The notes below the pieces were generated by a model. The model had not been told where the DNA came from. It made no database searches and saw only the letters and a list, made by a program, of their open reading frames with translations. From the NCBI GenBank assembly GCA_045540675.1, contig JAZQHQ010000001.1, positions 1,401 through 65,400 of the forward strand: a DNA stretch of 64,000 bases, written 5' to 3'. The number at the start of each line of letters is the position of its first letter. Positions within the stretch are counted from its first letter, which is position 1. Below are positions 7,799 through 18,207 of the stretch, in pieces. The stretch is from Alistipes sp. Lineage in GTDB: Bacteria > Bacteroidota > Bacteroidia > Bacteroidales > Rikenellaceae. A program made the position numbers and the translations under genes.

Positions 7799-7872
7799 CG
7801 CGGGGTGGAGCAGCTGGTTAGCTTGCCGGGCTCATAACCCGGAGGTCGGAGGTTCGAGTCCTCCTCCCGCAA
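7799..7872 (+). tRNA. tRNA-Met(CAT), initiator (fMet) type
   Basis: Cloverleaf: acceptor CGCGGGG/TCCCGCA with C1:A72 mismatch, anticodon arm CCGGG-CTCATAA-CCCGG, T arm GGAGG-TTCGAGT-CCTCC; CCA not encoded. Confidence 0.97.
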
Positions 7873-9436
7873 CTAAACGAGACAAGTCGAAAGATTTGTC
7901 TCTTTTTTTATCTTTTTTATTTTTATAATTCACTGAAATAGTGCGTGTTATATCAAAGAACGAATTGGTGCTATTGGTTAGAAAACTTCTTTTTTCTTTA
8001 TCCCATTCAACACCCTTTGGAAAGACTAATTTTTGTATTTTTTGGCATACATCAAAGTCTTGTTTCTTCCAATAAACACCTAAATTACAAGCAATTACAA
8101 TAGTAGTCTCTATGTATTCGGCAAGGTTAGATAGATTTACGGATACTCTCTCCAACTCTGCCTCCGCTTTATGCTTATTTATCTCCAAATCTCTAATAAC
8201 TTCCAAATAGACATCTTTCTCGATTGCACCAATTGCATAGTTCTTTTTAGCACTCTTTATTTGGGTGGTTAAGGTTGCGATATTCTTCTTGATATTATCT
8301 ATATCGCTGATTTGTGTATGCGTTTTCTCTTCAAATTTCTTTTTTAAAACTATCGTCAATATAGGTAGCAATTCATTAGGTACAGCGAATCCATTGAGCA
8401 ATTCGGCATACTTTGAATGAATTTCCTTCGCTGACACATTTACGCTACCCTCCTTGCCACTATACTTATAATAATCCAAATCCTTCTTTTTAACAGTATA
8501 TCCTGATAGTGTATGCCCTAATGCGTGTATATGGTTTTTCAGCGGGAAACGAGGTGTTTCTGTCGCTTGCTCGTAACCTTTGTTGTTGCCCATAAGAATA
8601 CTTTGCACCTTCTCGAATAGTGCCTCGGAGATAAGAGGTTCTTGCTTCCCTTTTACAATCGCTCCTTTCAGCAGACTATGCTCAATTCTACCACAATAAA
8701 ACTGATTTTGTAGGCAGTTGGATAGTCTTTGTTTGCTAATATCCAGTCCTCTTAATTTTAATCTCTCTACAACCTTTGCTTGGGAAAGATTTGGTTCATT
8801 TGCAATCCATACCCAAGCATTTTTTAATATCTTGCCTTTGTCATTGACTGTTAATTTGTGTTCTTTATTTACCTTCTTGGAGTCATATCCAAGCGGTGGT
8901 TTGCTGTACCACTCGCCTCGGTTCAAACACGACACCATACCTTCGTAGCACTTATGCCTACGCATCGCATTATCAATATCTGCAATGATAAGTAGAATAG
9001 CAGATATTTGCTCTGACAGCACATTGCCCTCATCAATAGGTTGGTTTACAGATTTGATGATAACACCATTGCGTTTTAGTTGCCCTTTATATGTCAATCC
9101 CTCGTACATATTTCTGCTGAATCTATCATAGTCGAAAACAACTATTGTATCCACCTCTGGATCATTCATCACAGCACCTATCATTTCAAGAAAGTGCTCT
9201 CCTGCAACCTTCGCTGATTCAAATGTGCCACCAAAACAGTGCTTTACCTCTTTATTTAACGCTTCGCAGTAACCATTACAAGCGTCCATCTGCGTTTGAA
9301 TGGAGTGGTTCGTCTTAAACTGCTCCTCCGATGATACTCGTGTCCAAATTACTGCCTTGCCTTTACCACTCTTTGAAATAGCGAGTCTCTTTTCTACAAT
9401 CTTCTCAATACGAGTTTTCTTCTGTTTTTTAATCAT
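7832..9436 (-). CDS. Large serine recombinase (integrase); C-terminus runs antisense into the tRNA
   Basis: WTRVSSEEQ catalytic Ser, DRFSR, KPPLGY recombinase domain, NQFYCG, EPLISEALFEKVQ, coiled coil; ends RLVAGGGLEPPTSGL = reverse complement of the tRNA 3' half. Confidence 0.95.
   Translation of the reverse strand: MIKKQKKTRIEKIVEKRLAISKSGKGKAVIWTRVSSEEQFKTNHSIQTQMDACNGYCEALNKEVKHCFGGTFESAKVAGEHFLEMIGAVMNDPEVDTIVVFDYDRFSRNMYEGLTYKGQLKRNGVIIKSVNQPIDEGNVLSEQISAILLIIADIDNAMRRHKCYEGMVSCLNRGEWYSKPPLGYDSKKVNKEHKLTVNDKGKILKNAWVWIANEPNLSQAKVVERLKLRGLDISKQRLSNCLQNQFYCGRIEHSLLKGAIVKGKQEPLISEALFEKVQSILMGNNKGYEQATETPRFPLKNHIHALGHTLSGYTVKKKDLDYYKYSGKEGSVNVSAKEIHSKYAELLNGFAVPNELLPILTIVLKKKFEEKTHTQISDIDNIKKNIATLTTQIKSAKKNYAIGAIEKDVYLEVIRDLEINKHKAEAELERVSVNLSNLAEYIETTIVIACNLGVYWKKQDFDVCQKIQKLVFPKGVEWDKEKRSFLTNSTNSFFDITRTISVNYKNKKDKKRDKSFDLSRLVAGGGLEPPTSGL
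7879..7909 (+). terminator. Element-supplied terminator for the tRNA at attL
   Basis: gagacaagtc-GAAA-gatttgtctc 10-bp stem (one G-U) plus T7. Confidence 0.85.
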
Positions 9437-9599
9437 AAATTTCTTCGGTTTTCACTTTATTATTCTTGTACCACACATATCCGATTTCCGCTATTTCATC
9501 TAATCCATTAAGTATGGTTATTATATCGTCTTCGTTGGTTATCCCCAACTTGTTAAATTCTTCAATGTATCTATTTTCTAAATCATCTTTCAGAAACAT
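9429..9599 (-). CDS. 56-aa acidic protein translationally coupled to the LSR
   Basis: Manual translation MFLKDDLENRYIEEFNKLGITNEDDIITILNGLDEIAEIGYVWYKNNKVKTEEIYD; its stop overlaps the LSR start (ATGATTAA). Confidence 0.7.
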   Translation of the reverse strand: MFLKDDLENRYIEEFNKLGITNEDDIITILNGLDEIAEIGYVWYKNNKVKTEEIYD

Positions 9600-9845
9600 T
9601 ATTAAATTAGAACTTCGTGCTTTCGCACTCCCCTCGTTCTTCTTGATTTTGAGGTTGAGGGGTTATTCGCTTTCGCCTCCTACTCGGTTAATTGGTAGGT
9701 TTTCTGTTCGACAGGGGATATGCGCAAAACCCTTGTACCATATAGGCACAATAATCCTTCTCTATGGACTCATACTATTCTAAAATTTTTAATTGAAATA
9801 GGCGACAGAATCGTCTAACAAGAGCATTTCAACTCTCTTGCTGTG

Positions 9846-9853
9846 CAAATATA
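9846..9853 (-). promoter_or_regulatory. -7 promoter box upstream of the small ORF-LSR operon
   Basis: TATATTTG on the minus strand. Confidence 0.6.
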
Positions 9854-9886
9854 CCAAAAAATTTTGAATTTATAAACAGCTGGCTA

Positions 9887-10513
9887 CTAATTAGATAAAA
9901 TTTTCTGCAATTTTCTCAAAGTATTTACCGATGTTGAGGTTATTGCTTGTACATTTCTTAATGACAGTCCTTTTTTTAGCAACTGAATTTCTTTTTGGTA
10001 GTCTGTCTTCATTTGTTCGACTGATTTACGGTATCCCTCCTTTCTGCCTACCTTACCACCGCACTCTCTAAAATGGTTATAACCCGACTCCATTCTGCAA
10101 CGGATTAGACTTCTTTCCAAACTGTTGAACTGTGCAAGGATACCCATCACCAACTGCGCAATCGGATTGGGCTGTCCACTTGGTAGCAATGTTTCGAGTC
10201 CGTTCTGATGTATGTAAACAGATATTTTGCGATTTGTAAGATAATCTATCACACTCAGGAAGTCCACCGCTCGTCTTGAAAGACGGGAACACTCATAAAT
10301 TAAGACTTTATCTACCTTGTGATTTTCGGTAAAGGCGAGTAGTTTGGTTAATGCTTCACGCTCCTCAACCTTCTTGGCACCGCTTACCTTCTCGGTAAAC
10401 TCCGCCACCACCTCATACTCCATCTTCTGTGCATACTCTCGGAGTTCTGCCACTTGTCTATCAAATTCCTGAGTTTTGGTACTAACTCGTGCATATATCA
10501 CTACCTTTGTCAT
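9887..10513 (-). CDS. Small serine recombinase (resolvase/invertase family)
   Basis: IYARVST, SRLSR, C-terminal HTH (GLSLRNVQAITSTSVNTLRK). Confidence 0.95.
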   Translation of the reverse strand: MTKVVIYARVSTKTQEFDRQVAELREYAQKMEYEVVAEFTEKVSGAKKVEEREALTKLLAFTENHKVDKVLIYECSRLSRRAVDFLSVIDYLTNRKISVYIHQNGLETLLPSGQPNPIAQLVMGILAQFNSLERSLIRCRMESGYNHFRECGGKVGRKEGYRKSVEQMKTDYQKEIQLLKKGLSLRNVQAITSTSVNTLRKLQKILSN

Positions 10514-10654
10514 ATTGGTTATAGTTTAATTTTGTATGACAAAAATAATAATATATTATTAAATAAACAAATTTTATTAATATAATAATATGAATTAATT
10601 TGAATTTATTATGTATATGGTATTAAATAGGCAATTGACTTTTGCACCAACAAA

Positions 10655-10673
10655 AAAGGAGGCGTGTGCCTCC
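10655..10673 (-). terminator. Terminator after the 152-aa gene
   Basis: ggaggc-gtgt-gcctcc hairpin followed by T6 on the minus strand. Confidence 0.7.
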
Positions 10674-10698
10674 ACTTCAATCAAGACTGTGATAATCT

Positions 10699-11157
10699 TT
10701 ATAGTATCCTAAAATCAGGCCGATAACCTCTTTTGTATTCTGTTAGATGCTTAATTATCTCAGCATCTTTAATCATACAAGGAAGATCGTGCGTGAATTC
10801 AAGAATTATATCCTCTTTGGTTATTTGAAATGTCTTTCCTACAAGATAGTTGTGTAAAGGTGATGTAGAGTCTGTTACATTATCAGGAGCAACATCAATT
10901 GCTTTAATATCGTGTTTAGATGGCAATAACCTTATGACTATAAATTTTTCATTCTCTGCATTAAGTTTTGATAACTGACTTGATGCTATATCATACAAAA
11001 CACTAAAATCGTCACTCCTCACAACGCATACTGCATCATACTCAACTCCTTTATGTAATCCATCTTTTAAGATGCTATCCCTATTCTTGGCAGGTGTGAT
11101 ATGATAGAAAGGTAAATTTTTATCGATATATTCTTGTACTGTCATCGCTTTATTCAT
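10699..11157 (-). CDS. Putative ADP-ribosyltransferase-fold protein (Tpt1/KptA/DarT-like)
   Basis: FYHITPAKNRDSILKDGL (H-x-T...N..SIL..GL), AVCVV, FIVIRL, ITKEDII spaced like ART core strands. Confidence 0.6.
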   Translation of the reverse strand: MNKAMTVQEYIDKNLPFYHITPAKNRDSILKDGLHKGVEYDAVCVVRSDDFSVLYDIASSQLSKLNAENEKFIVIRLLPSKHDIKAIDVAPDNVTDSTSPLHNYLVGKTFQITKEDIILEFTHDLPCMIKDAEIIKHLTEYKRGYRPDFRIL

Positions 11158-11407
11158 TCTCTTTGGGTATATATATTAATACAAATACACTTTTTTGTAT
11201 CTCTAATGAACATTTGACATCTTGTTCATTTGTATATTCAATATGGCAATATGCCTGAGATTTTATGTTGTTATTTTCGTCTTTGTAAATTTTGTTGTAC
11301 TCTTTGATAAGATATACTTCCATTGGTAGATTAAAAATTTCGATAATATCTTTCTCAATAGATAGGTATTCATTAGTAGGTTTGCGATAAAATTTTTGTA
11401 GTCCCAT
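11150..11407 (-). CDS. 85-aa hypothetical protein coupled to the ART-like gene
   Basis: ATG start, 8-bp overlap with the next gene (ATGAATAA). Confidence 0.65.
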   Translation of the reverse strand: MGLQKFYRKPTNEYLSIEKDIIEIFNLPMEVYLIKEYNKIYKDENNNIKSQAYCHIEYTNEQDVKCSLEIQKSVFVLIYIPKENE

Positions 11408-11443
11408 AATTGTAAAAGGTTTAGTGGCTAATAAATAATTTTA

Positions 11444-11470
11444 AGGTTGGTGGCGGGAAACCACCAACCT
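11444..11470. other. Perfect 10-bp hairpin downstream of the lectin gene
   Basis: aggttggtgg-cgggaaa-ccaccaacct; no U-tract in the gene direction. Confidence 0.7.
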
Positions 11471-11499
11471 GATTGTTAAATAGATAAATAGTTAAATTG

Positions 11500-14400
11500 T
11501 TAAAAAGCGAGGACAGCACGCACAGATATTTTGTAACCCTTAGTAGCGTAACCGTCTGAAATACCAAAACTGAAATTGACACCGCAAGCGTTGTTGCTAT
11601 TGTATTCAGTAGATGACCAATAATCTTCTGTCCCGAAAGCGGTATATCCATTTGTAGAGAGAATTGAGTTTATGGTTGATTTATTATTGTAAATCGTATA
11701 TAATTCATTAAACGCAGGAAGATACCAATCCGTACCATAATCTGAACACCACTTAAATGCAGGATATTTAGTTTCCCAAGATGATAATGCTTTAATTATT
11801 GCCATATTAGTAGTTCCATTATCACTGTCTATCGCTGAGGTTGTAATCCCTGATGTACTCCACTTCAAAGATGAACCTTCGGCAACAGACACCATCTTGC
11901 CCGCATTATATGGAGTCTTTTCGATATATACAACACCAAGTCCTGTGGTATCAAGTTTCTTTGTAGAAGAAAGGTTTGCATTGAATAACTCTACGCCTTT
12001 AAGTGCTGTATTTGAAGTTAGGTCAATATCGGTAATTGCCAAACCTGATGCAACCAACACTTCAAGCAGTGTATTGTACTTTGTATCAACCACCGAAATT
12101 TCAGCGTTGTTACTTATATTAAGATATGTAAGCGCAGTGTTGTTACGGATATTGAGTGTCAAGAGGAGATTGTTTGCAATATCGAACTCCTGCAAAGCTG
12201 CATTTGCCGTAACATCGATTTTTCGCAGTTGGTTATTGTTGCAGTAGAACTTCACAAGCGAGGCGTTGTCCGATACATCGATAGAGGAGAGTCTATTGTT
12301 GTTTGCATTAATCTCTGTAAGTTTTTTGTTATTGGATAAGTCGAGAGATCTAAGGCGATTAAACGAGCAGTTTAACTTTTCGAGGTTGGTAAAATACTCG
12401 ATACCCGCAAGCGAGGTTGTCTGTGGCATAAGTCCCATAATGTCAATCTCGGTGATGTTCTCTGCCTCTGCCAACGAAATTTCGCTATCAGCATCGGTAT
12501 CAAACTTCTCGACAAGATATGCCTTGAAATTTACATCAGGAATATAGACTGTATTGGTTGTCCAAGGCACCATATTTACATAGTCGGAAGTTAAACAGTT
12601 GTAACCATTCGATACCTCCAAGCGCACATTTGCAGAGATTTCGTTACGGAAGAATCCCTCTTCGAGGTTTGTACCCGTGGCAACTACGGTCAAGATACCA
12701 TCTTTTGCCGATGCGCCCACAACAGTGAGGTTTACAAATTCGCCTACTGCAGCACGGGTTTGAGCATAGACGGCCTTAACGCTCAACGCATCTTCCCAAA
12801 CTTCAACCAACTCCTCGGCAACAGCAGCAGGACGCACCTCATATTTAAGGGTTGCACTGCCTGCGGTGATTGTGCCATTGTTCTCGGTGTAGTACATTGT
12901 TGCCTTGCAATCCGAAAACTCAGGAACAAAACTCAACGACTGAATGCGCTCGATAAGGGCAGCAATCTGCTCCTGCATCTCGGCGATATCTGCTTGCATA
13001 TTGTAAATGGTGAGTTTGATAGTCTTAACCTCTTGTTCCAAAGCTGTAACACGAGCATCGAGAGCATCTATTGTAGCGTTAATAGTTGCCACTTCGTTGT
13101 CTATACGGGTATTGATGGTTGTAACCTCCGTAGCGATAGCATCACGGAGTTGTCCATTCAAGGTGTTGATGGCGGTTTTGATTGCCTCCTTGTATGCTTC
13201 GGTAATCTCAGCAGCGGTGTTGTTGAGTTCACTTCTCAATTGTGCAATAGAGGCGGTGTTTTCGGAAATCGCCTGTGCGTTATTGCCAATAGCGGTTGCA
13301 TTGGCAGAGATAAGGGCAGCATTCTTGGCAATCTCCTCTGCGTTCTTGGCAATGGTGCGAGTGTTGGTATCTACATTTGATTGCAAAGAGGTAATTGCAC
13401 TCTTATTGCTGTTGATAAGAGTCTCGTTTGCCTCGATAAGAGATTTATTCTCGTCAATCTTTTGGCTGTTGCCCTCTATGTCTTCGCTATTCTCTGCAAT
13501 TGCCTGCGCATTGGCAGTTATCTTGGTGGCATTGTTTGAAATCTGCTCTGCATTATCCGCAATGGCGAGTTTATGTGTTGCAATTTCGCCCTGTGCTGAT
13601 GATAAATCTTCACGCAAAGCATCTATCAACTCCTTGTTGTCTGAGATATTCTTGGTGAGTTGCTCCGAGAGTTCGCTGATAAGATTTTCAAGATATGCCT
13701 TCTGTGCTTCGAGTTTGCTATTGAACTCCTGCATAATGTCGGCAAGCATCTGATTAACCTCCTGCATAGTGTAGTAACCTGCGAGTTGGTTATTAACCCA
13801 CTGTTGCATCTTTGTCTCCGAAGCGGAAATAGCATCTTTGATTGCTTGTGTATATGCTGCCTCAACCTCCTCCTTTGCTGCCGATATAGCATCTGTATAT
13901 GCTTTGGTAATCTCTGTTACCTTCTGTTGGATATTCTTGTTCAAGGTTGATACTGCCGCCTCGATATCCTCCTTAATTTTGGTGTTAAGGCGAGTTTCAA
14001 GGGCGGTAAGACTCTTGTTGATTGACTCTATCTGCGTCTTGATACTTGCGACTTCTGCTGACAATTCATTATGTTTTTCGAGAGTTGCAAAGGTTTGAGA
14101 CACCCAATCCTTTGTACTCTGAATTTCGCCATTGACATAACTCTCCAAATCGTTGATTTTATCCTCCAATGCCCTGTCCTTATTCTGTAAAGAGGTGATA
14201 GCATCGTTGATTTGTGCTAACTCGCCCTCCAATTCCGACTTTACAGATGCAAGTTGTGCCAACACATCAGATTTTGCAGTTGAAATGTTGTTTTTCAACT
14301 CCTTCTCAATACTTTCAATCTCTTTGTTTGTCAGTTCGATTGATTTTTGAAGATTACTTGCAGTGGACTGCAAATTCTCGATGTACCCTTTCAACTCCTT

Positions 14401-14583
14401 GTCTGTTTTTTTCAATTCGGGCAAAGTAGCATTGATTGCATTTACCTGCTCTTGGAGCGATGCGATTTGGGTGTTTTCAATCTCGTCAAGACGATTGTTG
14501 ATATCATCAATCGCCTCTTCAAACTTTTTGCAACTTGGCAACATCATTGCCACGACTGCAACTAACAAAAATAGTTTCTTCAT
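11500..14583 (-). CDS. Surface lipoprotein: long coiled coil, beta domain with TRA motif, LRR, C-terminal DUF1566/C-type-lectin-like domain
   Basis: MKKLFLLVAVVAMMLPSC lipobox; heptad repeats; FDTDADSEISLAEA cap then LxxLxCxxNxLxxLDLS repeats; WYLPAFNEL and YWSSTE...VRAVLAF. Confidence 0.85.
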   Translation of the reverse strand: MKKLFLLVAVVAMMLPSCKKFEEAIDDINNRLDEIENTQIASLQEQVNAINATLPELKKTDKELKGYIENLQSTASNLQKSIELTNKEIESIEKELKNNISTAKSDVLAQLASVKSELEGELAQINDAITSLQNKDRALEDKINDLESYVNGEIQSTKDWVSQTFATLEKHNELSAEVASIKTQIESINKSLTALETRLNTKIKEDIEAAVSTLNKNIQQKVTEITKAYTDAISAAKEEVEAAYTQAIKDAISASETKMQQWVNNQLAGYYTMQEVNQMLADIMQEFNSKLEAQKAYLENLISELSEQLTKNISDNKELIDALREDLSSAQGEIATHKLAIADNAEQISNNATKITANAQAIAENSEDIEGNSQKIDENKSLIEANETLINSNKSAITSLQSNVDTNTRTIAKNAEEIAKNAALISANATAIGNNAQAISENTASIAQLRSELNNTAAEITEAYKEAIKTAINTLNGQLRDAIATEVTTINTRIDNEVATINATIDALDARVTALEQEVKTIKLTIYNMQADIAEMQEQIAALIERIQSLSFVPEFSDCKATMYYTENNGTITAGSATLKYEVRPAAVAEELVEVWEDALSVKAVYAQTRAAVGEFVNLTVVGASAKDGILTVVATGTNLEEGFFRNEISANVRLEVSNGYNCLTSDYVNMVPWTTNTVYIPDVNFKAYLVEKFDTDADSEISLAEAENITEIDIMGLMPQTTSLAGIEYFTNLEKLNCSFNRLRSLDLSNNKKLTEINANNNRLSSIDVSDNASLVKFYCNNNQLRKIDVTANAALQEFDIANNLLLTLNIRNNTALTYLNISNNAEISVVDTKYNTLLEVLVASGLAITDIDLTSNTALKGVELFNANLSSTKKLDTTGLGVVYIEKTPYNAGKMVSVAEGSSLKWSTSGITTSAIDSDNGTTNMAIIKALSSWETKYPAFKWCSDYGTDWYLPAFNELYTIYNNKSTINSILSTNGYTAFGTEDYWSSTEYNSNNACGVNFSFGISDGYATKGYKISVRAVLAF

Positions 14584-14673
14584 AACAGTAAAGTATTAAA
14601 AATTAAACAATTATTAAAATGTTCGTTCTGTTATGACAATAAAGAAAGTGTGGAGAAACACTGTTCGTCTATC

Positions 14674-14894
14674 AATCTGATGGTTCTGACAAAACCTTGA
14701 CAACAATAAACGATGCGATACCCCACACCCGTAATATGCAGAATAGGGTTGCAGAATGCTCCCAACCATACATATACAAGAAATGAGTGCTATTCGTTGT
14801 CCTGTTGTCGTAAAAACTGTCAGATTTTCAGATTAGGACTGCAAAAAACACTTTCAATATGTCCGTCAATCTATTGATTGACAAGGCAAATATA
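14674..14894 (-). promoter_or_regulatory. Promoter (TATATTTG at 14887-14894) and long structured 5' leader of the lipoprotein gene
   Basis: Interrupted inverted repeat 14674-14834 (blocks aatctga, tctgaca, gacaaca, aacga) plus gtcaatc-tatt-gattgac hairpin. Confidence 0.6.
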
Positions 14895-14983
14895 AGCATT
14901 TTTTGTTTCAATGTTCTCTAAAAGAGAAACTTTTTGAATAGCACTCTGTGAAGTATCGCTCTAAATGATACAAAAAGTGAAGG

Positions 14984-15313
14984 TTAAAACACCTTCACAA
15001 TTGACTCCCAACGGAAACTACGCCACGCTGATTTTTCAATGTCAAAATAGGCGGTGGTGGAGTAAATTTCACGACTAACACCCCTACCGTTGGTATATTT
15101 GTAGGCAAGAGTGGCATTTGTTGTTCCCCACGCCTCACGGATCTCTCCGTTCTTCTTGATGTAAAGGAAGTGTCCCACACCTGTACGAAGTTTATGCTTC
15201 AAATTCTCAATCATCATCGCCTTTGCCCCTGCAACAAGGAGATTTTGAGTGCGCTGAGCAATTACATTCATTCGTACTGCTGTTGTGTCTGTTATAATCA
15301 ATGCGTTTGTCAT
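14984..15313 (-). CDS. SH3 beta-barrel / WYL_2 (DUF2693)-like protein
   Basis: FLYIKKNGEIREAWGT...YFDIEKSAWRSF pattern; likely start MTNAL at 15313. Confidence 0.75.
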   Translation of the reverse strand: MTNALIITDTTAVRMNVIAQRTQNLLVAGAKAMMIENLKHKLRTGVGHFLYIKKNGEIREAWGTTNATLAYKYTNGRGVSREIYSTTAYFDIEKSAWRSFRWESIVKVF

Positions 15314-15354
15314 AGTGTAAGATTTTTTATTACAGTTAGTTAAAATTTTAATTC

Positions 15355-15519
15355 TTAATACCAAGTTGAAGGTTTAGTCCAACCCTCCAATTCATACCAA
15401 GCATCGAGCGCTGCATATCTGCTGCGACCAAAACTTGCAACCTTATTGCCCGTTGCAATCTCCCATACGCCCCAACCACTGCCTGAGCAACCAATCTGAT
15501 ATTTTCTCTCTCGTGCCAT
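15355..15519 (-). CDS. 54-aa Trp/Gly-rich small protein
   Basis: Manual translation MARERKYQIGCSGSGWGVWEIATGNKVASFGRSRYAALDAWYELEGWTKPSTWY; -7 box at 15553-15560. Confidence 0.7.
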   Translation of the reverse strand: MARERKYQIGCSGSGWGVWEIATGNKVASFGRSRYAALDAWYELEGWTKPSTWY

Positions 15520-15552
15520 ATTTTATTAATATCATATCCATTATTTCTACTA

Positions 15553-15652
15553 CAAAGATAAAACTTTATTATTAATAATCCAAATTATTTTAACATTTTA
15601 TTTTAATTTTATCTAAATAATTTAACATTCTGATATTTATTTTCTATCTTTG
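15553..15652. promoter_or_regulatory. Divergent promoter pair
   Basis: TATCTTTG on the minus strand (15553-15560) and plus strand (15645-15652); repeated tttaacatt between them. Confidence 0.7.
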
Positions 15653-15671
15653 TCTAAAATTTTGGGATAGT

Positions 15672-15965
15672 ATGGCAAAACTACGAGTAAAGCAGATTGT
15701 AAAGGAGAAGGGTTTAACATTGGCAAAAGTGGCTGAGATGTTGGAAATCCACCCTGTAAATTTAAGTACCACCCTCAACGGTAATCCAACCATCGCAACA
15801 TTGGAGAAGATTGCAAATGTATTGGGAGTAGATGTTACCGACTTAATTGAAACCGAGAACAAACCTATTGTAAGTGGTTTTGTAAAGGTTGATGGAGAGG
15901 TTATTGAAATCACTTCTGTTGCCGATTTGGAACAGGCATTGAATAAGGCAAAGGAGTTGAAGTAA
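15672..15965 (+). CDS. XRE-family helix-turn-helix regulator
   Basis: KGLTLAKVAEMLEIHPVNLSTTLNGNPTIATLEKIANVLGV. Confidence 0.92.
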   Translation: MAKLRVKQIVKEKGLTLAKVAEMLEIHPVNLSTTLNGNPTIATLEKIANVLGVDVTDLIETENKPIVSGFVKVDGEVIEITSVADLEQALNKAKELK

Positions 15966-16184
15966 TGCCCTTCAATTTTTGATACTTTTTAGGTATCAAT
16001 TTTTGAAATAATTAACTGATAGTTTTTAATCATTTTTTGATTAAATTCTGTCAGTTTTTTTGTTTTTAACATTACTGATAATACTCTACTTTTCTTTGAA
16101 AAATAATTGCACCATATTTCAATATCTATCTTTTTATTTTTCAGTTTGATAGTCTTAAAATATATGCAGTGATAAGGGTGGTTA

Positions 16185-17033
16185 CTATCTTATGCTACCA
16201 CTACACAATATATCTTTCCAAAGTAGTCGCTTTCTACCTCTTCGAAATCTTATTACCCTACTAAGAGCATCGTGGAAAATATCTGTTAGGACTTCTCTGT
16301 TGAATAGTAAATTTGATTCATCTTCGCTTTCAAACCGTTTGAGATAATCGTAATTCAACCGAACTTCAAGACGGTGCAAAGATTTGGGACTGCCGTAGAA
16401 CTCTGTTACATAAGATTTGTGCGAACTCTCCTTTATCTCTGCCAACTTGTTGTATGCACATACATATATCCCATTCCTCTTATTTTGCACTGCTTCTCTC
16501 TGACAGCAGTAGAAAGTAGGATCCTTTAACCTATCAAGAGTAACCTTGTATGTGATATGCAGTTCAGGAATACTCTTTTTTCTATCGTATATCTCTTTAC
16601 CATTGACGATAGTTGCGACACTCTTATCCTTGTATAACTTGCGAATGGTGTATACAAAGTTCTTTTTACTATCCGTTGCCAAGTCTAACGATGTGATATT
16701 GTTGTAGGTTAGATTTAAGGTGCTTTTTAACTCTCTTAATATATCTGCCAAGTTGCTCTCATATAGCAATCTGTTATCAATCTTTAACCAAATATAACTA
16801 CTGTCATCATCTCCATATCGCCCAAAATAAATATGCCCACAATCCTTGTCATATAACAATACACGGAAATAGTATTGAAAGTGCAACCCCGATATTCTAA
16901 TTATAGAAAATTCTCCAACCTCAATCCGCTCGCCAATGCCGACACAGCGAAGTGCTTCTAATGTTTCAGGTTGTGCTATGTAACACAACCTTACTCCATC
17001 AATAATCACCTTACCCAACTTTTCATTGCTCAT
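16185..17033 (-). CDS. Rep_trans-like rolling-circle initiator / MOB_T-type relaxase
   Basis: ITSLDLATD, YNKLAE and RLEVRL motifs in Rep_trans order; likely start MSNEK at 17033 overlapping the upstream ORF. Confidence 0.65.
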   Translation of the reverse strand: MSNEKLGKVIIDGVRLCYIAQPETLEALRCVGIGERIEVGEFSIIRISGLHFQYYFRVLLYDKDCGHIYFGRYGDDDSSYIWLKIDNRLLYESNLADILRELKSTLNLTYNNITSLDLATDSKKNFVYTIRKLYKDKSVATIVNGKEIYDRKKSIPELHITYKVTLDRLKDPTFYCCQREAVQNKRNGIYVCAYNKLAEIKESSHKSYVTEFYGSPKSLHRLEVRLNYDYLKRFESEDESNLLFNREVLTDIFHDALSRVIRFRRGRKRLLWKDILCSGSIR

Positions 17034-17223
17034 CACTTTTAGAAGATTTGACACTATTATTGTCATTCCCATATTTGGAAGGGATTGAGTCCCACACACG
17101 CTTTAATGATTGGGATAGGTGCTGACGATGCCAATAACTTTTTTTCTTACCTTTAAGACTTTGACTGATTTTCATCTTTACAGAGTCATCAAGTTCTCTG
17201 TATTTGCGTTTATATTCACTCAT
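17023..17223 (-). CDS. 66-aa basic protein with NUMOD3-like repeats
   Basis: SVKMKISQSLKGKKKSYWHRQHLSQSLK. Confidence 0.7.
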   Translation of the reverse strand: MSEYKRKYRELDDSVKMKISQSLKGKKKSYWHRQHLSQSLKRVWDSIPSKYGNDNNSVKSSKSDEQ

Positions 17224-17567
17224 AATTTTATAAAGCAGGGATTTTTATTTCCTGTCATATATAAATATGGTAGCAAAAGTAAAAAAGTAAAGTATAGTAG
17301 AAACTTTTTGAAAAAATAGTTACTTAAATTTTTAGTAACAGACAACAAGTTCTTACTATTCCTCCTACTTTACCCATTAATTTTAAGGCGGGATACGCCT
17401 GAGTAACTAATTGATAGATAGTCCTATATCATAGGTAGATATTAGTCTATTTTTGAAAATAAACTTTGTCAAACAAAGTGGGATAAATTGGGTAAAAGAA
17501 GGGAAAATCTGTTTTTATAGACAATGCTCGAATAAAAGATAATCTTTTAAGTTAAAATAGTACAGGC

Positions 17568-17591
17568 AGAGGGAGGTTTTCGCCTCCCTCT
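17568..17591. other. 9-bp perfect hairpin near the right end of the element
   Basis: agagggagg-ttttcg-cctccctct. Confidence 0.65.
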
Positions 17592-17633
17592 ATTGATTAA
17601 AAAGTACGATAATTAAATTGATACATCAACGCC

Positions 17634-17720
17634 TTATTCAATCTTATTGTACCACTTCCAAAAGGCAATTACTAAGTCGTAATCAATTAAGAAACGGTTA
17701 GATAAGTTGATTGTTTGTTC
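17634..17720 (-). other. Detached alternative 3' end of the LSR gene (attP arm)
   Basis: In frame with the LSR across the shared core: EQTINLSNRFLIDYDLVIAFWKWYNKIE*. Confidence 0.75.
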
Positions 17721-18080
17721 AACTAAAAGAGAATAGTCGCCTATTCTCTTTTTTTGTTGCGCTCGGAGGCTCGGTCAGTCGGTGGCGTCTCGGCAAACTT
17801 GTCTGCGAGTTATGCGATAGTAGTTGTTGCTACGCAACTACGATAACAGATTAAAAATCAATAGTTCAAATAAATTTGACTACTGCTTTTCAATCTATTC
17901 TCGAAACTTTCAGTTTAACTCCTATCGCATATCTCTCCGGTCTGCTCTCAACTGCTGCGACCGTTCGAGTCCAATTTACAATGAAATGGTTAGACAGGTT
18001 GTTTGTTCAACTAAAAGGGGTTAATCGAATGATTGTCTCTCTTTTTTTGTTGCGTTCGGAGGCTCGGTCAGTCGGTGGCG
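17691..18080 (+). repeat. Two imperfect ~95-bp direct repeats (attR-like), 288 bp apart
   Basis: gaaa(c/t)ggttaga...gtttgttcaactaaaa...tttttttgttgcg(c/t)tcggaggctcggtcagtcggtggc at about 17691-17785 and 17983-18078. Confidence 0.85.
17728..17755 (+). terminator. Terminator right of attR (probable pre-insertion tRNA terminator)
   Basis: agagaatag-tcgc-ctattctct plus T-run. Confidence 0.8.
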
Positions 18081-18207
18081 GTGTGGCAGAGTTGTCTTTG
18101 CTATTGGCTAACTAAAAACGCTTGCGCCGAAAATAATTCTTAATTTTTAATTCTTAATTCTTAATTATATTTGTATTTTTGCAAAAAATATAAATAAAGG
18201 TATAGCA

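Follow-up and report, generated by a model that had tools for sequence, protein, structure and literature searches.

A predicted minimal ART-fold protein and its coupled 85-aa gene on an Alistipes island: candidate conflict effector or toxin–antitoxin module?

Two small, tightly coupled genes on a contig of a gut Alistipes sp. raise the question of what an apparently minimal protein of the ADP-ribosyltransferase (ART) fold does there, and whether the 85-aa product encoded directly upstream of it (p85) is its partner. A sequence-only reading had proposed a new toxin–antitoxin (TA) or anti-phage module. ART enzymes (DarT, CmdT, AcrIF11, T4 Alt/Mod) are recurring weapons in phage–bacterium conflicts; to our knowledge, each new conflict ART family has so far revealed new target chemistry. 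The phage defences of gut Bacteroidales are poorly charted. The window referred to below is the whole stretch of DNA that was analysed, 64,000 nt in length.

The gene pair and its island

The features of the locus are the following.

~7800..18100: low-GC integrated island of ~10 kb at tRNA-Met (GC 0.30–0.40 vs ~0.50 in the flanks)
7799..7873, plus strand: tRNA-Met, the starting point of the island
7832..9436, minus strand: large serine recombinase gene, with its 3' end overlapping tRNA-Met; integration end of the island
9887..10513, minus strand: small serine recombinase (resolvase/invertase) gene of the island
10658..10673, minus strand: terminator-like hairpin GGAGGCACACGCCTCC followed by T6, of the intrinsic type, 25 nt past the ART stop
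10699..11157, minus strand: minimal ART-fold gene, a 152-aa ORF from the ATG at 11157
11150..11407, minus strand: p85 gene, 85 aa, directly 5' of the ART gene
11445..11469, minus strand: hairpin with a 9-bp stem, GGTTGGTGG-TTTCCCG-CCACCAACC, between the lipoprotein gene and p85, read from the sequence
11500..14583, minus strand: 1027-aa lipoprotein gene (coiled coil, LRR, Lcl_C/DUF1566 tip)
14984..15364, minus strand: WYL_2 gene, island cargo
15672..15965, plus strand: XRE-type HTH gene, island cargo
16185..17099, minus strand: 304-aa ORF, island cargo

The pair had been described as AT-rich cargo on a mobile element, and the low GC content, the tRNA-Met end and the serine recombinases bear this out. 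Over the p85–ART region (10.4–11.8 kb) GC falls to 0.29–0.32, vs ~0.50 in the flanks. An Alistipes MAG has the ART gene too, at 97% identity. The gene of the 1027-aa lipoprotein lies upstream of p85–ART in the same direction, and it is the commonest neighbour of close ART homologs. The tip of this lipoprotein is DGR-like; p85 or the ART protein as an accessory of such a DGR was considered and rejected, as an RT and an Avd-like helical basic protein are both lacking.

Each of the two ORFs is a genuine gene. The ART gene has 15 close homologs and 62 representatives (clustered at 50% identity), and p85 shows a dN/dS of 0.23 against its counterpart in locus L001 and solely synonymous changes against that in locus L024. 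The coordinates of the two ORFs and their 8-nt overlap (ATGAATAA), as previously given, were confirmed. Concerning the start of the ART gene, ~44 of the 62 family representatives begin at the residue equivalent to Met5 (MTVQEY), so the start is probably at 11145 and the product 148 aa long; a 4-nt spacer then separates the p85 stop from the ART start. The two genes are tightly coupled whichever ART start is used.

The operon structure of p85–ART was read from sequence features alone. The hairpin GGAGGCACACGCCTCC with its T6 is the likely end of the operon. The hairpin at 11445..11469 was not called by the terminator scan; it opens a block which is 99–100% identical to L024. The sigma-70 promoter scan gave 16 matches against 15.4 expected from shuffles, no better than chance, and no Bacteroidetes-type -7 motif was seen between this hairpin and p85.

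Fold and putative active site of the ART protein

Scans of the ART protein and p85 against Pfam, NCBIfam, PADLOC and PHROGs gave nothing above noise. The AF2 model of the ART protein, built on the family alignment, has a pLDDT of 88.9 and a pTM of 0.85. Its strands are at residues 17–22, 42–46, 71–77, 89–91, 102–106 and 117–122 and its helices at 23–32 and 51–62, which matches the order of the ART core (split sheet, β1-α-β2-α-β3-β4-β5-β6). In the Foldseek comparison with PDB the best 50 matches are all ART-fold proteins, led by Tpt1/KptA (probabilities of 0.96, 0.92 and 0.95 at ranks 1, 2 and 3; E 0.016). Further matches are cholera and heat-labile toxins, exotoxin A (ExoA), tankyrases, PARP14, DarT and pertussis toxin. 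In absolute terms the scores are modest (E 0.016, TM 0.35–0.42), but the ART-fold claim stands because the match list is uniform. The top matches in BFVD are small phage proteins, several of them annotated as DarT, RNA 2'-phosphotransferase or ART (E from 3e-4).

The comparison of the family profile (50 sequences) with PDB sequences places DarT1 (E 1.6e-3) and KptA (5e-3) on top. Both matches run through the N-terminal FYHITp..N..SIL..GL, i.e. β1-α1, and in hhalign against Tpt1 the FYHIT..SIL..GL is aligned with FHGT..SI..GL. The sequence-only reading had pointed to a YHIT...N..SIL..GL start and a Tpt1/KptA/DarT-like fold, and the AF2 model, Foldseek and the profile matches agree with it: the predicted structure is ART-like, with Tpt1/KptA first. 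On the basis of the model, the assignment of the 152-aa protein to a predicted minimal ART fold, with Tpt1/KptA and DarT as its nearest kin, holds.

Looking at single residues, those conserved over the 50 sequences are F17, H19, T21, I29, G33, L34, I43, C44, R47, P79, D92 and Y104; H102 and N103 are also common in the same alignment. Further conserved positions are S48, which follows R47, and L138-T139-x-Y141. H19 and T21, which belong to the YHIT motif at 19–21, are nearly invariant and align with the HGT of Tpt1 and the HFT of DarT1. HxS/T is the conserved NAD+ ribose-contact motif of the H-H-h ARTs (PMC8120803), and this β1 motif of the ART superfamily is present in the window protein as H19-x-T21. 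R47-S48 come after β2, D92 lies in the loop before β5 and H102-N103-Y104 stand at the start of β5. The pattern of H, R, D and H-N (H19, R47, D92, N103/Y104) persists in the most distant clade, that of the 167-aa proteins.

Concerning catalysis, there is no canonical Glu at the β5 position of the ART protein, where HNY stands. HNYL occupies 102–105 and HNY opens the predicted β-strand of the canonical Glu, in line with the earlier remark that a DarT-style catalytic Glu is missing from its likely site. The nearly invariant Asp92, which had been overlooked, is a plausible candidate for the catalytic acid. No second His or Tyr is identifiable in β2 and no Glu in β5, so that the protein could be a non-catalytic binder of NAD or ADPr. 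When the 26-column hhalign with Tpt1 is extended, Val46 falls at the second-His position (CVVRS vs HVHLS), a placement that is sequence-based and not structure-based.

The upstream gene and the partner question

The p85 protein is acidic (pI 5.2), with a predicted helix and three-stranded sheet, and its homologs form four clusters (65–99% identity). Its model is of low to medium confidence (pLDDT 66) and the Foldseek matches are heterogeneous (LOV/PAS, epimerases; RMSD ~10 Å), so no fold was assigned. Neither the library scans nor the structure search gave a known antitoxin, DNA-binding (HTH, RHH) or ADP-ribose-hydrolase fold for it.

We sampled ~20 distinct ART locus types for upstream partners. 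p85 is found in four of them (the window, L008, L024 and L001-3), and all four carry the gene of a giant coiled-coil/LRR lipoprotein directly upstream; in L008 the trio giant lipoprotein–p85–ART alone is inserted between core genes. A second family of small partners, p74, precedes ARTs of two different subclades (L054, L055, L062). Elsewhere the upstream ORF is an unrelated one of 59, 103 or 111 aa, or there is none. Altogether, ~10 of the ~20 locus types have a small, mostly acidic upstream ORF (p85, p74, p59, p103, p111) that ends no more than 70 nt before the ART gene; such ORFs fall into at least four families unrelated to one another. No homology of p85 to p74, p59, p103, the 85-aa ORF of L019 or the N-terminal extension in L010 was detected by blastp or hhalign. 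On the maximum-likelihood tree, which covered 23 ARTs, those linked to p85 fall into two separate supported clades. The clade of the window ART is sister (98/98) to L004/L022 (66% identity), where His19 is kept and there is no small upstream gene.

The comparison with L024 separates the two genes further: the p85 proteins are 100% identical, the ARTs 53%. The locus is divided as follows.

11112..11471, minus strand: conserved anchor with the hairpin, p85 and ~45 nt at the 5' end of the ART gene (97.5–100% identity to L024 per 40-nt bin)
10638..11111, minus strand: ART gene body (about 55–60% identity to L024)
10505..10637: downstream AT-rich intergenic anchor (92–100% identity to L024)

The breakpoint of identity ~45 nt into the ART gene is sharp, and the downstream anchor reaches as far as the start codon of the following recombinase gene, which is the resolvase in the window and a tyrosine-recombinase fragment in L024. 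Since the flanks are near-identical and the ART body is divergent, the body has been exchanged as a cassette between the anchors, independently of p85. This allele exchange is a clean example of the modular evolution of mobile-element cargo.

These data bear on the reading in which p85–ART is a two-gene TA or abortive-infection module, with the ART as a growth-arresting toxin that p85 binds and neutralises until, on infection, p85 is released or degraded. The tight coupling and the antitoxin-first order agree with it, and the layout of adjacent, co-oriented and coupled small genes (8-nt overlap or 4-nt spacer) is that of type II TA systems, whose superfamilies typically mix and match partners, as the unrelated small upstream ORFs would. 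P0011 (L005-7), the sole clearly partner-less close copy, has H19Y, and the ~85%-similar P0082, with a 103-aa upstream gene, keeps His19, which is a single contrast. No Macro, ARH or NADAR domain is found anywhere in the 90%-complete host genome, so control would have to be by binding. Against this reading stand the 53% identity of the ARTs beside an unchanged p85 in L024, the two clades of p85-linked ARTs with the partner-less sister L004/L022, the 167-aa clade without a small partner, the constant company of the giant lipoprotein and the lack of an antitoxin-like fold in p85. Co-occurrence and co-evolution, a further TA trait, are thus not seen in the pair, and we regard the two-gene module as unlikely.

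The proposal of a dedicated partner or antitoxin role for the 85-aa gene is accordingly not upheld. By sequence comparison, p85 appears as a separate cargo gene, co-transcribed and translationally coupled, which travels with the giant lipoprotein and is not a co-evolving cognate antitoxin. Small acidic ORFs upstream in about half of the loci could nevertheless point to a need for a neutralising partner, and p85 may modulate the ART as a loose, mix-and-match neutraliser.

Family contexts, candidate roles and known relatives

The ART family is small and sporadic, with 62 clusters at 50% identity. A solid copy is found in 2 of 401 genomes of the order, and no relatives are found in 50,697 phage records, 72,556 plasmids or IMG/VR. 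In Bacteroidales the ART is typically the last or near-last gene after genes of surface or envelope proteins: the giant lipoprotein (6 locus types), arrays of PEGA-domain lipoproteins and a Band_7/GYF/DUF6175 cluster. The loci are often on elements with recombinase, WYL_2, HTH or transposase genes. Known defence genes were not seen beside ARTs of the window's own clade, where the neighbours are envelope or surface lipoproteins and recombinases.

The distant members are secure (profile E 1e-21 to 1e-36), and all four of the contexts sampled for them, a small number, are defence loci.

L064: hsdM-hsdS-ART, type I R-M context
L063: hsdS-ART followed by a 1242-aa SF1 helicase, type I R-M context
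L046: end of a DruE-like gene, ART, ZacA-ZacB-ZacC (PADLOC E 1e-107 to 1e-255)
L044: SoFic, a 298-aa two-domain protein ending in ART, DRT2

The 167-aa clade is the hsdS-linked one. The ART domain is also found in fusions: in P0043 it is C-terminal to an R-S-E ART-like domain with FRG, STS and EDE motifs, in P0032 a weakly REase-like N-terminus precedes it, and in P0048, P0064 and P0085 it follows an 'LYHFS' domain. The anti-phage part of the sequence-only reading is thus favoured by the four distant members in defence loci, and the window's own clade, without defence neighbours, does not share in that support.

The distant defence loci, the fusions and the allele swapping support, at the level of sequence, a putative role as conflict effector, as do the sporadic distribution and the mobile-element setting. 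Our best reading, to which we give about an even chance, is that the protein belongs to a new ART family and acts as a conflict effector in defence or abortive infection, borne by the island as exchangeable cargo. In the mechanism we propose, the protein would bind NAD+ via H19/T21 and the β2 R47-S48 region, and D92 and H102/N103 would activate the transfer of ADP-ribose to a macromolecular target; alternatively, it might hydrolyse NAD+ in response to such a target. A nucleic-acid target is favoured because the structural kin Tpt1 and DarT modify nucleic acids. As the host has no known ADP-ribose-removing enzyme, the activity would need gating by a trigger or a bound guard. The guard may be p85 or p74 and, in the hsdS-linked clade, the R-M complex, in a PrrC-like manner. 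In this island the ART gene would form the 3' end of the lipoprotein operon, as cargo that can be exchanged, and would serve in defence.

A more specific form of this reading is a new class of single-gene anti-phage effectors, with a bare ART core, a non-canonical H...D...H-N-Y active site, silencing by unrelated, exchangeable guards (the type I R-M complex in some lineages, p85, p74 or similar small acidic proteins in others), infection-triggered ADP-ribosylation and a cassette-swapped body. On infection a nucleic-acid or translation target would be ADP-ribosylated, and in gut Bacteroidales the swapping of bodies between intergenic anchors would give element-borne allelic diversity. We put this class forward tentatively, as a possible but doubtful one.

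ARTs also serve the other side of such conflicts: AcrIF11 acts on Cas8f and T4 Alt/Mod on RNA polymerase. A small ART might likewise modify an immune or housekeeping protein of the host and help the island to establish. The gene is mobile-element cargo near the recombinase end, anti-defence hot spots, too, typically show alleles replaced between conserved anchors, and the structural neighbours include many small phage ART-like proteins. In size the protein, a small ART of one domain, is also close to AcrIF11, whose motif is a non-canonical H-H-D (PMC8120803, PMC12421852). However, the distant members are inside chromosomal R-M or defence operons, at the position of a defence effector, the phage, plasmid and IMG/VR collections hold no homologs, the family profile has no match to AcrIF11 (6KYF) at E<=10, and the ART gene is co-oriented at the end of the lipoprotein operon rather than in a leading-region-like block. 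An anti-defence or host-takeover enzyme is therefore improbable in our view.

The protein may instead be a catalytically inert ART-fold module, a sensor of NAD+ or ADP-ribose or an adaptor, comparable to the inactive ART domains at the N-terminus of binary toxins. None of the canonical triads (H-Y-E, R-S-E, H-H-h) is identifiable, the domain sits C-terminal to a canonical-looking R-S-E ART in P0043 or to the 'LYHFS' domain in three other proteins, and many loci tolerate it with no partner at all. Yet strong conservation of the polar H19, R47, D92, H102 and N103 is seen among sequences that have diverged by >50%, and active ARTs with odd triads exist, namely ParT (R-Y-N) and AcrIF11 (H-H-D) (PMC8120803); we consider an inert module very improbable. 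That the protein is a cytoplasmic modifying enzyme of the co-transcribed surface lipoprotein, comparable to the adhesin-modifying enzymes encoded beside adhesins, is hardly credible: close homologs do lie downstream of, and co-oriented with, large surface lipoprotein genes in most Bacteroidales loci (the giant coiled-coil/LRR protein, PEGA lipoproteins, the DUF6175 cluster) and the L008 insert holds the trio only, but the upstream surface proteins are from unrelated families, no surface protein is encoded beside the distant ART members, the swapping of ART alleles does not follow the lipoprotein, and a precedent for ADP-ribosylated lipoproteins was not found.

A conflict effector of the ART family, as preferred here, would be of interest for several reasons. 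No model in Pfam, NCBIfam, PADLOC or PHROGs covers the family, which is near the minimal ART size, has an unusual set of conserved residues and spans both classical defence loci and small mobile islands of gut Bacteroidales. A protein of ~150 aa is also tractable for biochemistry.

Among known families, Tpt1/KptA (PF01885; PDB 9LD4, 8TG4, 6E3A; C-terminal NAD+ lobe) is the best structural match, with a Foldseek probability of up to 0.96. Common to both are the β1-α1 motif (Y/F)H(G/I)T...SI...GL, the HxT ribose-contact motif and a Ser ending β2 (HVHLS in Tpt1, CVVRS in the window ART). In contrast to Tpt1/KptA, the window ART lacks the N-terminal winged-helix RNA lobe (only 16 residues precede β1 in the 152-aa protein) and the R-H-R-R catalytic tetrad; the second His of H-H-h is apparently not conserved in its family, which has D92 and HNY motifs of its own. 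The window protein has no match to PF01885 in Pfam, and hhalign of the family against Tpt1 covers 26 columns of the C-lobe only (probability 42%). Against Tpt1 and DarT alignments derived from Bacteroidales, hhalign matched the β1-α1 motif alone, so membership in either family was rejected. No Tpt1 or DarT genes were found in the host genome.

DarT (PF14487; PDB 8BAQ, 7OMX) is a bacterial toxin and defence effector which ADP-ribosylates ssDNA. It shares the ART fold, and DarT1 is the top profile-to-PDB match through the N-terminal motif. The window ART is ~60 aa shorter and has no identifiable ARTT Glu; DarT models of Pfam and PADLOC do not match it, and its relatives gave sub-threshold N-terminal matches only. 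The upstream p85 is unrelated to DarG. The sequence-only reading had noted the lack of a macrodomain DarG neighbour, and indeed no Macro domain is on the island and PF01661 is absent from the 90%-complete genome.

CC0527/DUF952 and AcrIF11 are likewise stand-alone ART cores (~110–135 aa) with non-canonical triads, H-H-h and H-H-D, respectively (PMC8120803). They show no sequence similarity to the window family (there is no DUF952 match in Pfam, and 6KYF and 2O0Q are absent from the profile–PDB and Foldseek matches), and their conserved residues differ from its own. AcrIF11 is also mobile-element cargo, phage- and plasmid-borne, whereas searches of phage and plasmid collections gave no member of the window family.

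PrrC is an abortive-infection effector inside a type I R-M operon, and in the prr locus it sits directly after hsdS. The 167-aa ART clade occupies this same position in L063 and L064; the window copy is not beside an R-M system. CmdT of CmdTAC, an mRNA ART, is an example of an ART acting as a toxin against phage (PMC11618068). Neither PrrC nor CmdT is homologous to the window family, which has no SecB-like chaperone or CmdA-like antitoxin. In PADLOC 2.0, 0 families matched at meaningful E-values when the ART and p85 were scanned along with six relatives and four alternative partners, and no name for the family was found in the library models or in the literature searched. This is a new family inside a well-known superfamily and theme, that of ARTs in conflict systems.

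Sequence anchors and variable segments

The locus L024, which carries a p85 gene (encoding the 85-aa acidic protein) 100% identical to that of the window and an ART (the minimal ADP-ribosyltransferase-fold protein) 53% identical to it, was used for the DNA comparison of the two elements. The AT-rich intergenic stretch at 10505-10637 of the window is 92-100% identical to L024 5110-5243, and both stretches stop precisely at the initiation codon of the gene that follows. That gene encodes a serine resolvase in the window and is a tyrosine-recombinase fragment in L024. Intergenic junctions seem to be recombination anchors for the exchange of whole gene bodies. The initial 2 kb of the giant lipoprotein gene is 92% identical to L024, whereas its tip-encoding 3' end (window 11472-11751) reaches just 57-75%; thus, p85 is flanked by two hypervariable segments. 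The far junction of the low-GC island is duplicated:

17711-17804 and 17999-18097, far junction of the island in two copies (repeat families D2 and D4)

The second copy lies 288-293 bp downstream, and the D2 and D4 repeats have 86-88% identity.

Two-domain relatives

Some homologous proteins contain two domains. In P0048, P0064 and P0085 (L044 2074-2970), the N-terminal ~150 aa begins with M(K)LYHFS(D/N)(K/R)Y, a further HxS-type beta1-like motif; this N-domain had no match in Pfam. All three may be tandem ART-fold proteins. The N-terminal domain of P0043 (327 aa) contains FRG, LSTSSS and EDE motifs, with a weak ADPrib_exo_Tox match (E 3e-4), and is joined to a complete copy of the window-ART family domain, so that two distinct ART types are found in one protein.

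The beta1 His and the upstream small ORF

The only close homolog clearly lacking an upstream small ORF is P0011 (L005-L007). Its relative P0082 (L025/L026), ~85% similar to it, retains the beta1 His (H19 of the window ART) and has a 103-aa gene upstream. At the beta1 His position P0011 has Tyr (FYYITP). In a water-buffalo Alistipes MAG (L010 5755-6474), the ART ORF extends 82 in-frame, stop-free codons upstream; either a small gene upstream has become fused to the ART gene, or the leader is exceptionally long. No similarity was found between the extension and p85.

Neighbourhoods of the relatives

In three metagenome contigs (L050, L051 and L054) there are extended arrays of paired PEGA-domain lipoprotein genes; scattered through these arrays are the ART gene and genes for several families of unannotated cytoplasmic proteins (about 187 and 226-248 aa). 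The family's 167-aa clade (L063 707-1210; L064 2782-3285) is located 3-6 nt past hsdS in type I R-M operons, and in L063 the gene of a 1242-aa RecD2/UvrD-like helicase begins 3 nt beyond the ART gene. The position after hsdS in a type I R-M operon is that of PrrC-like abortive-infection genes, whose placement the 167-aa clade shares.
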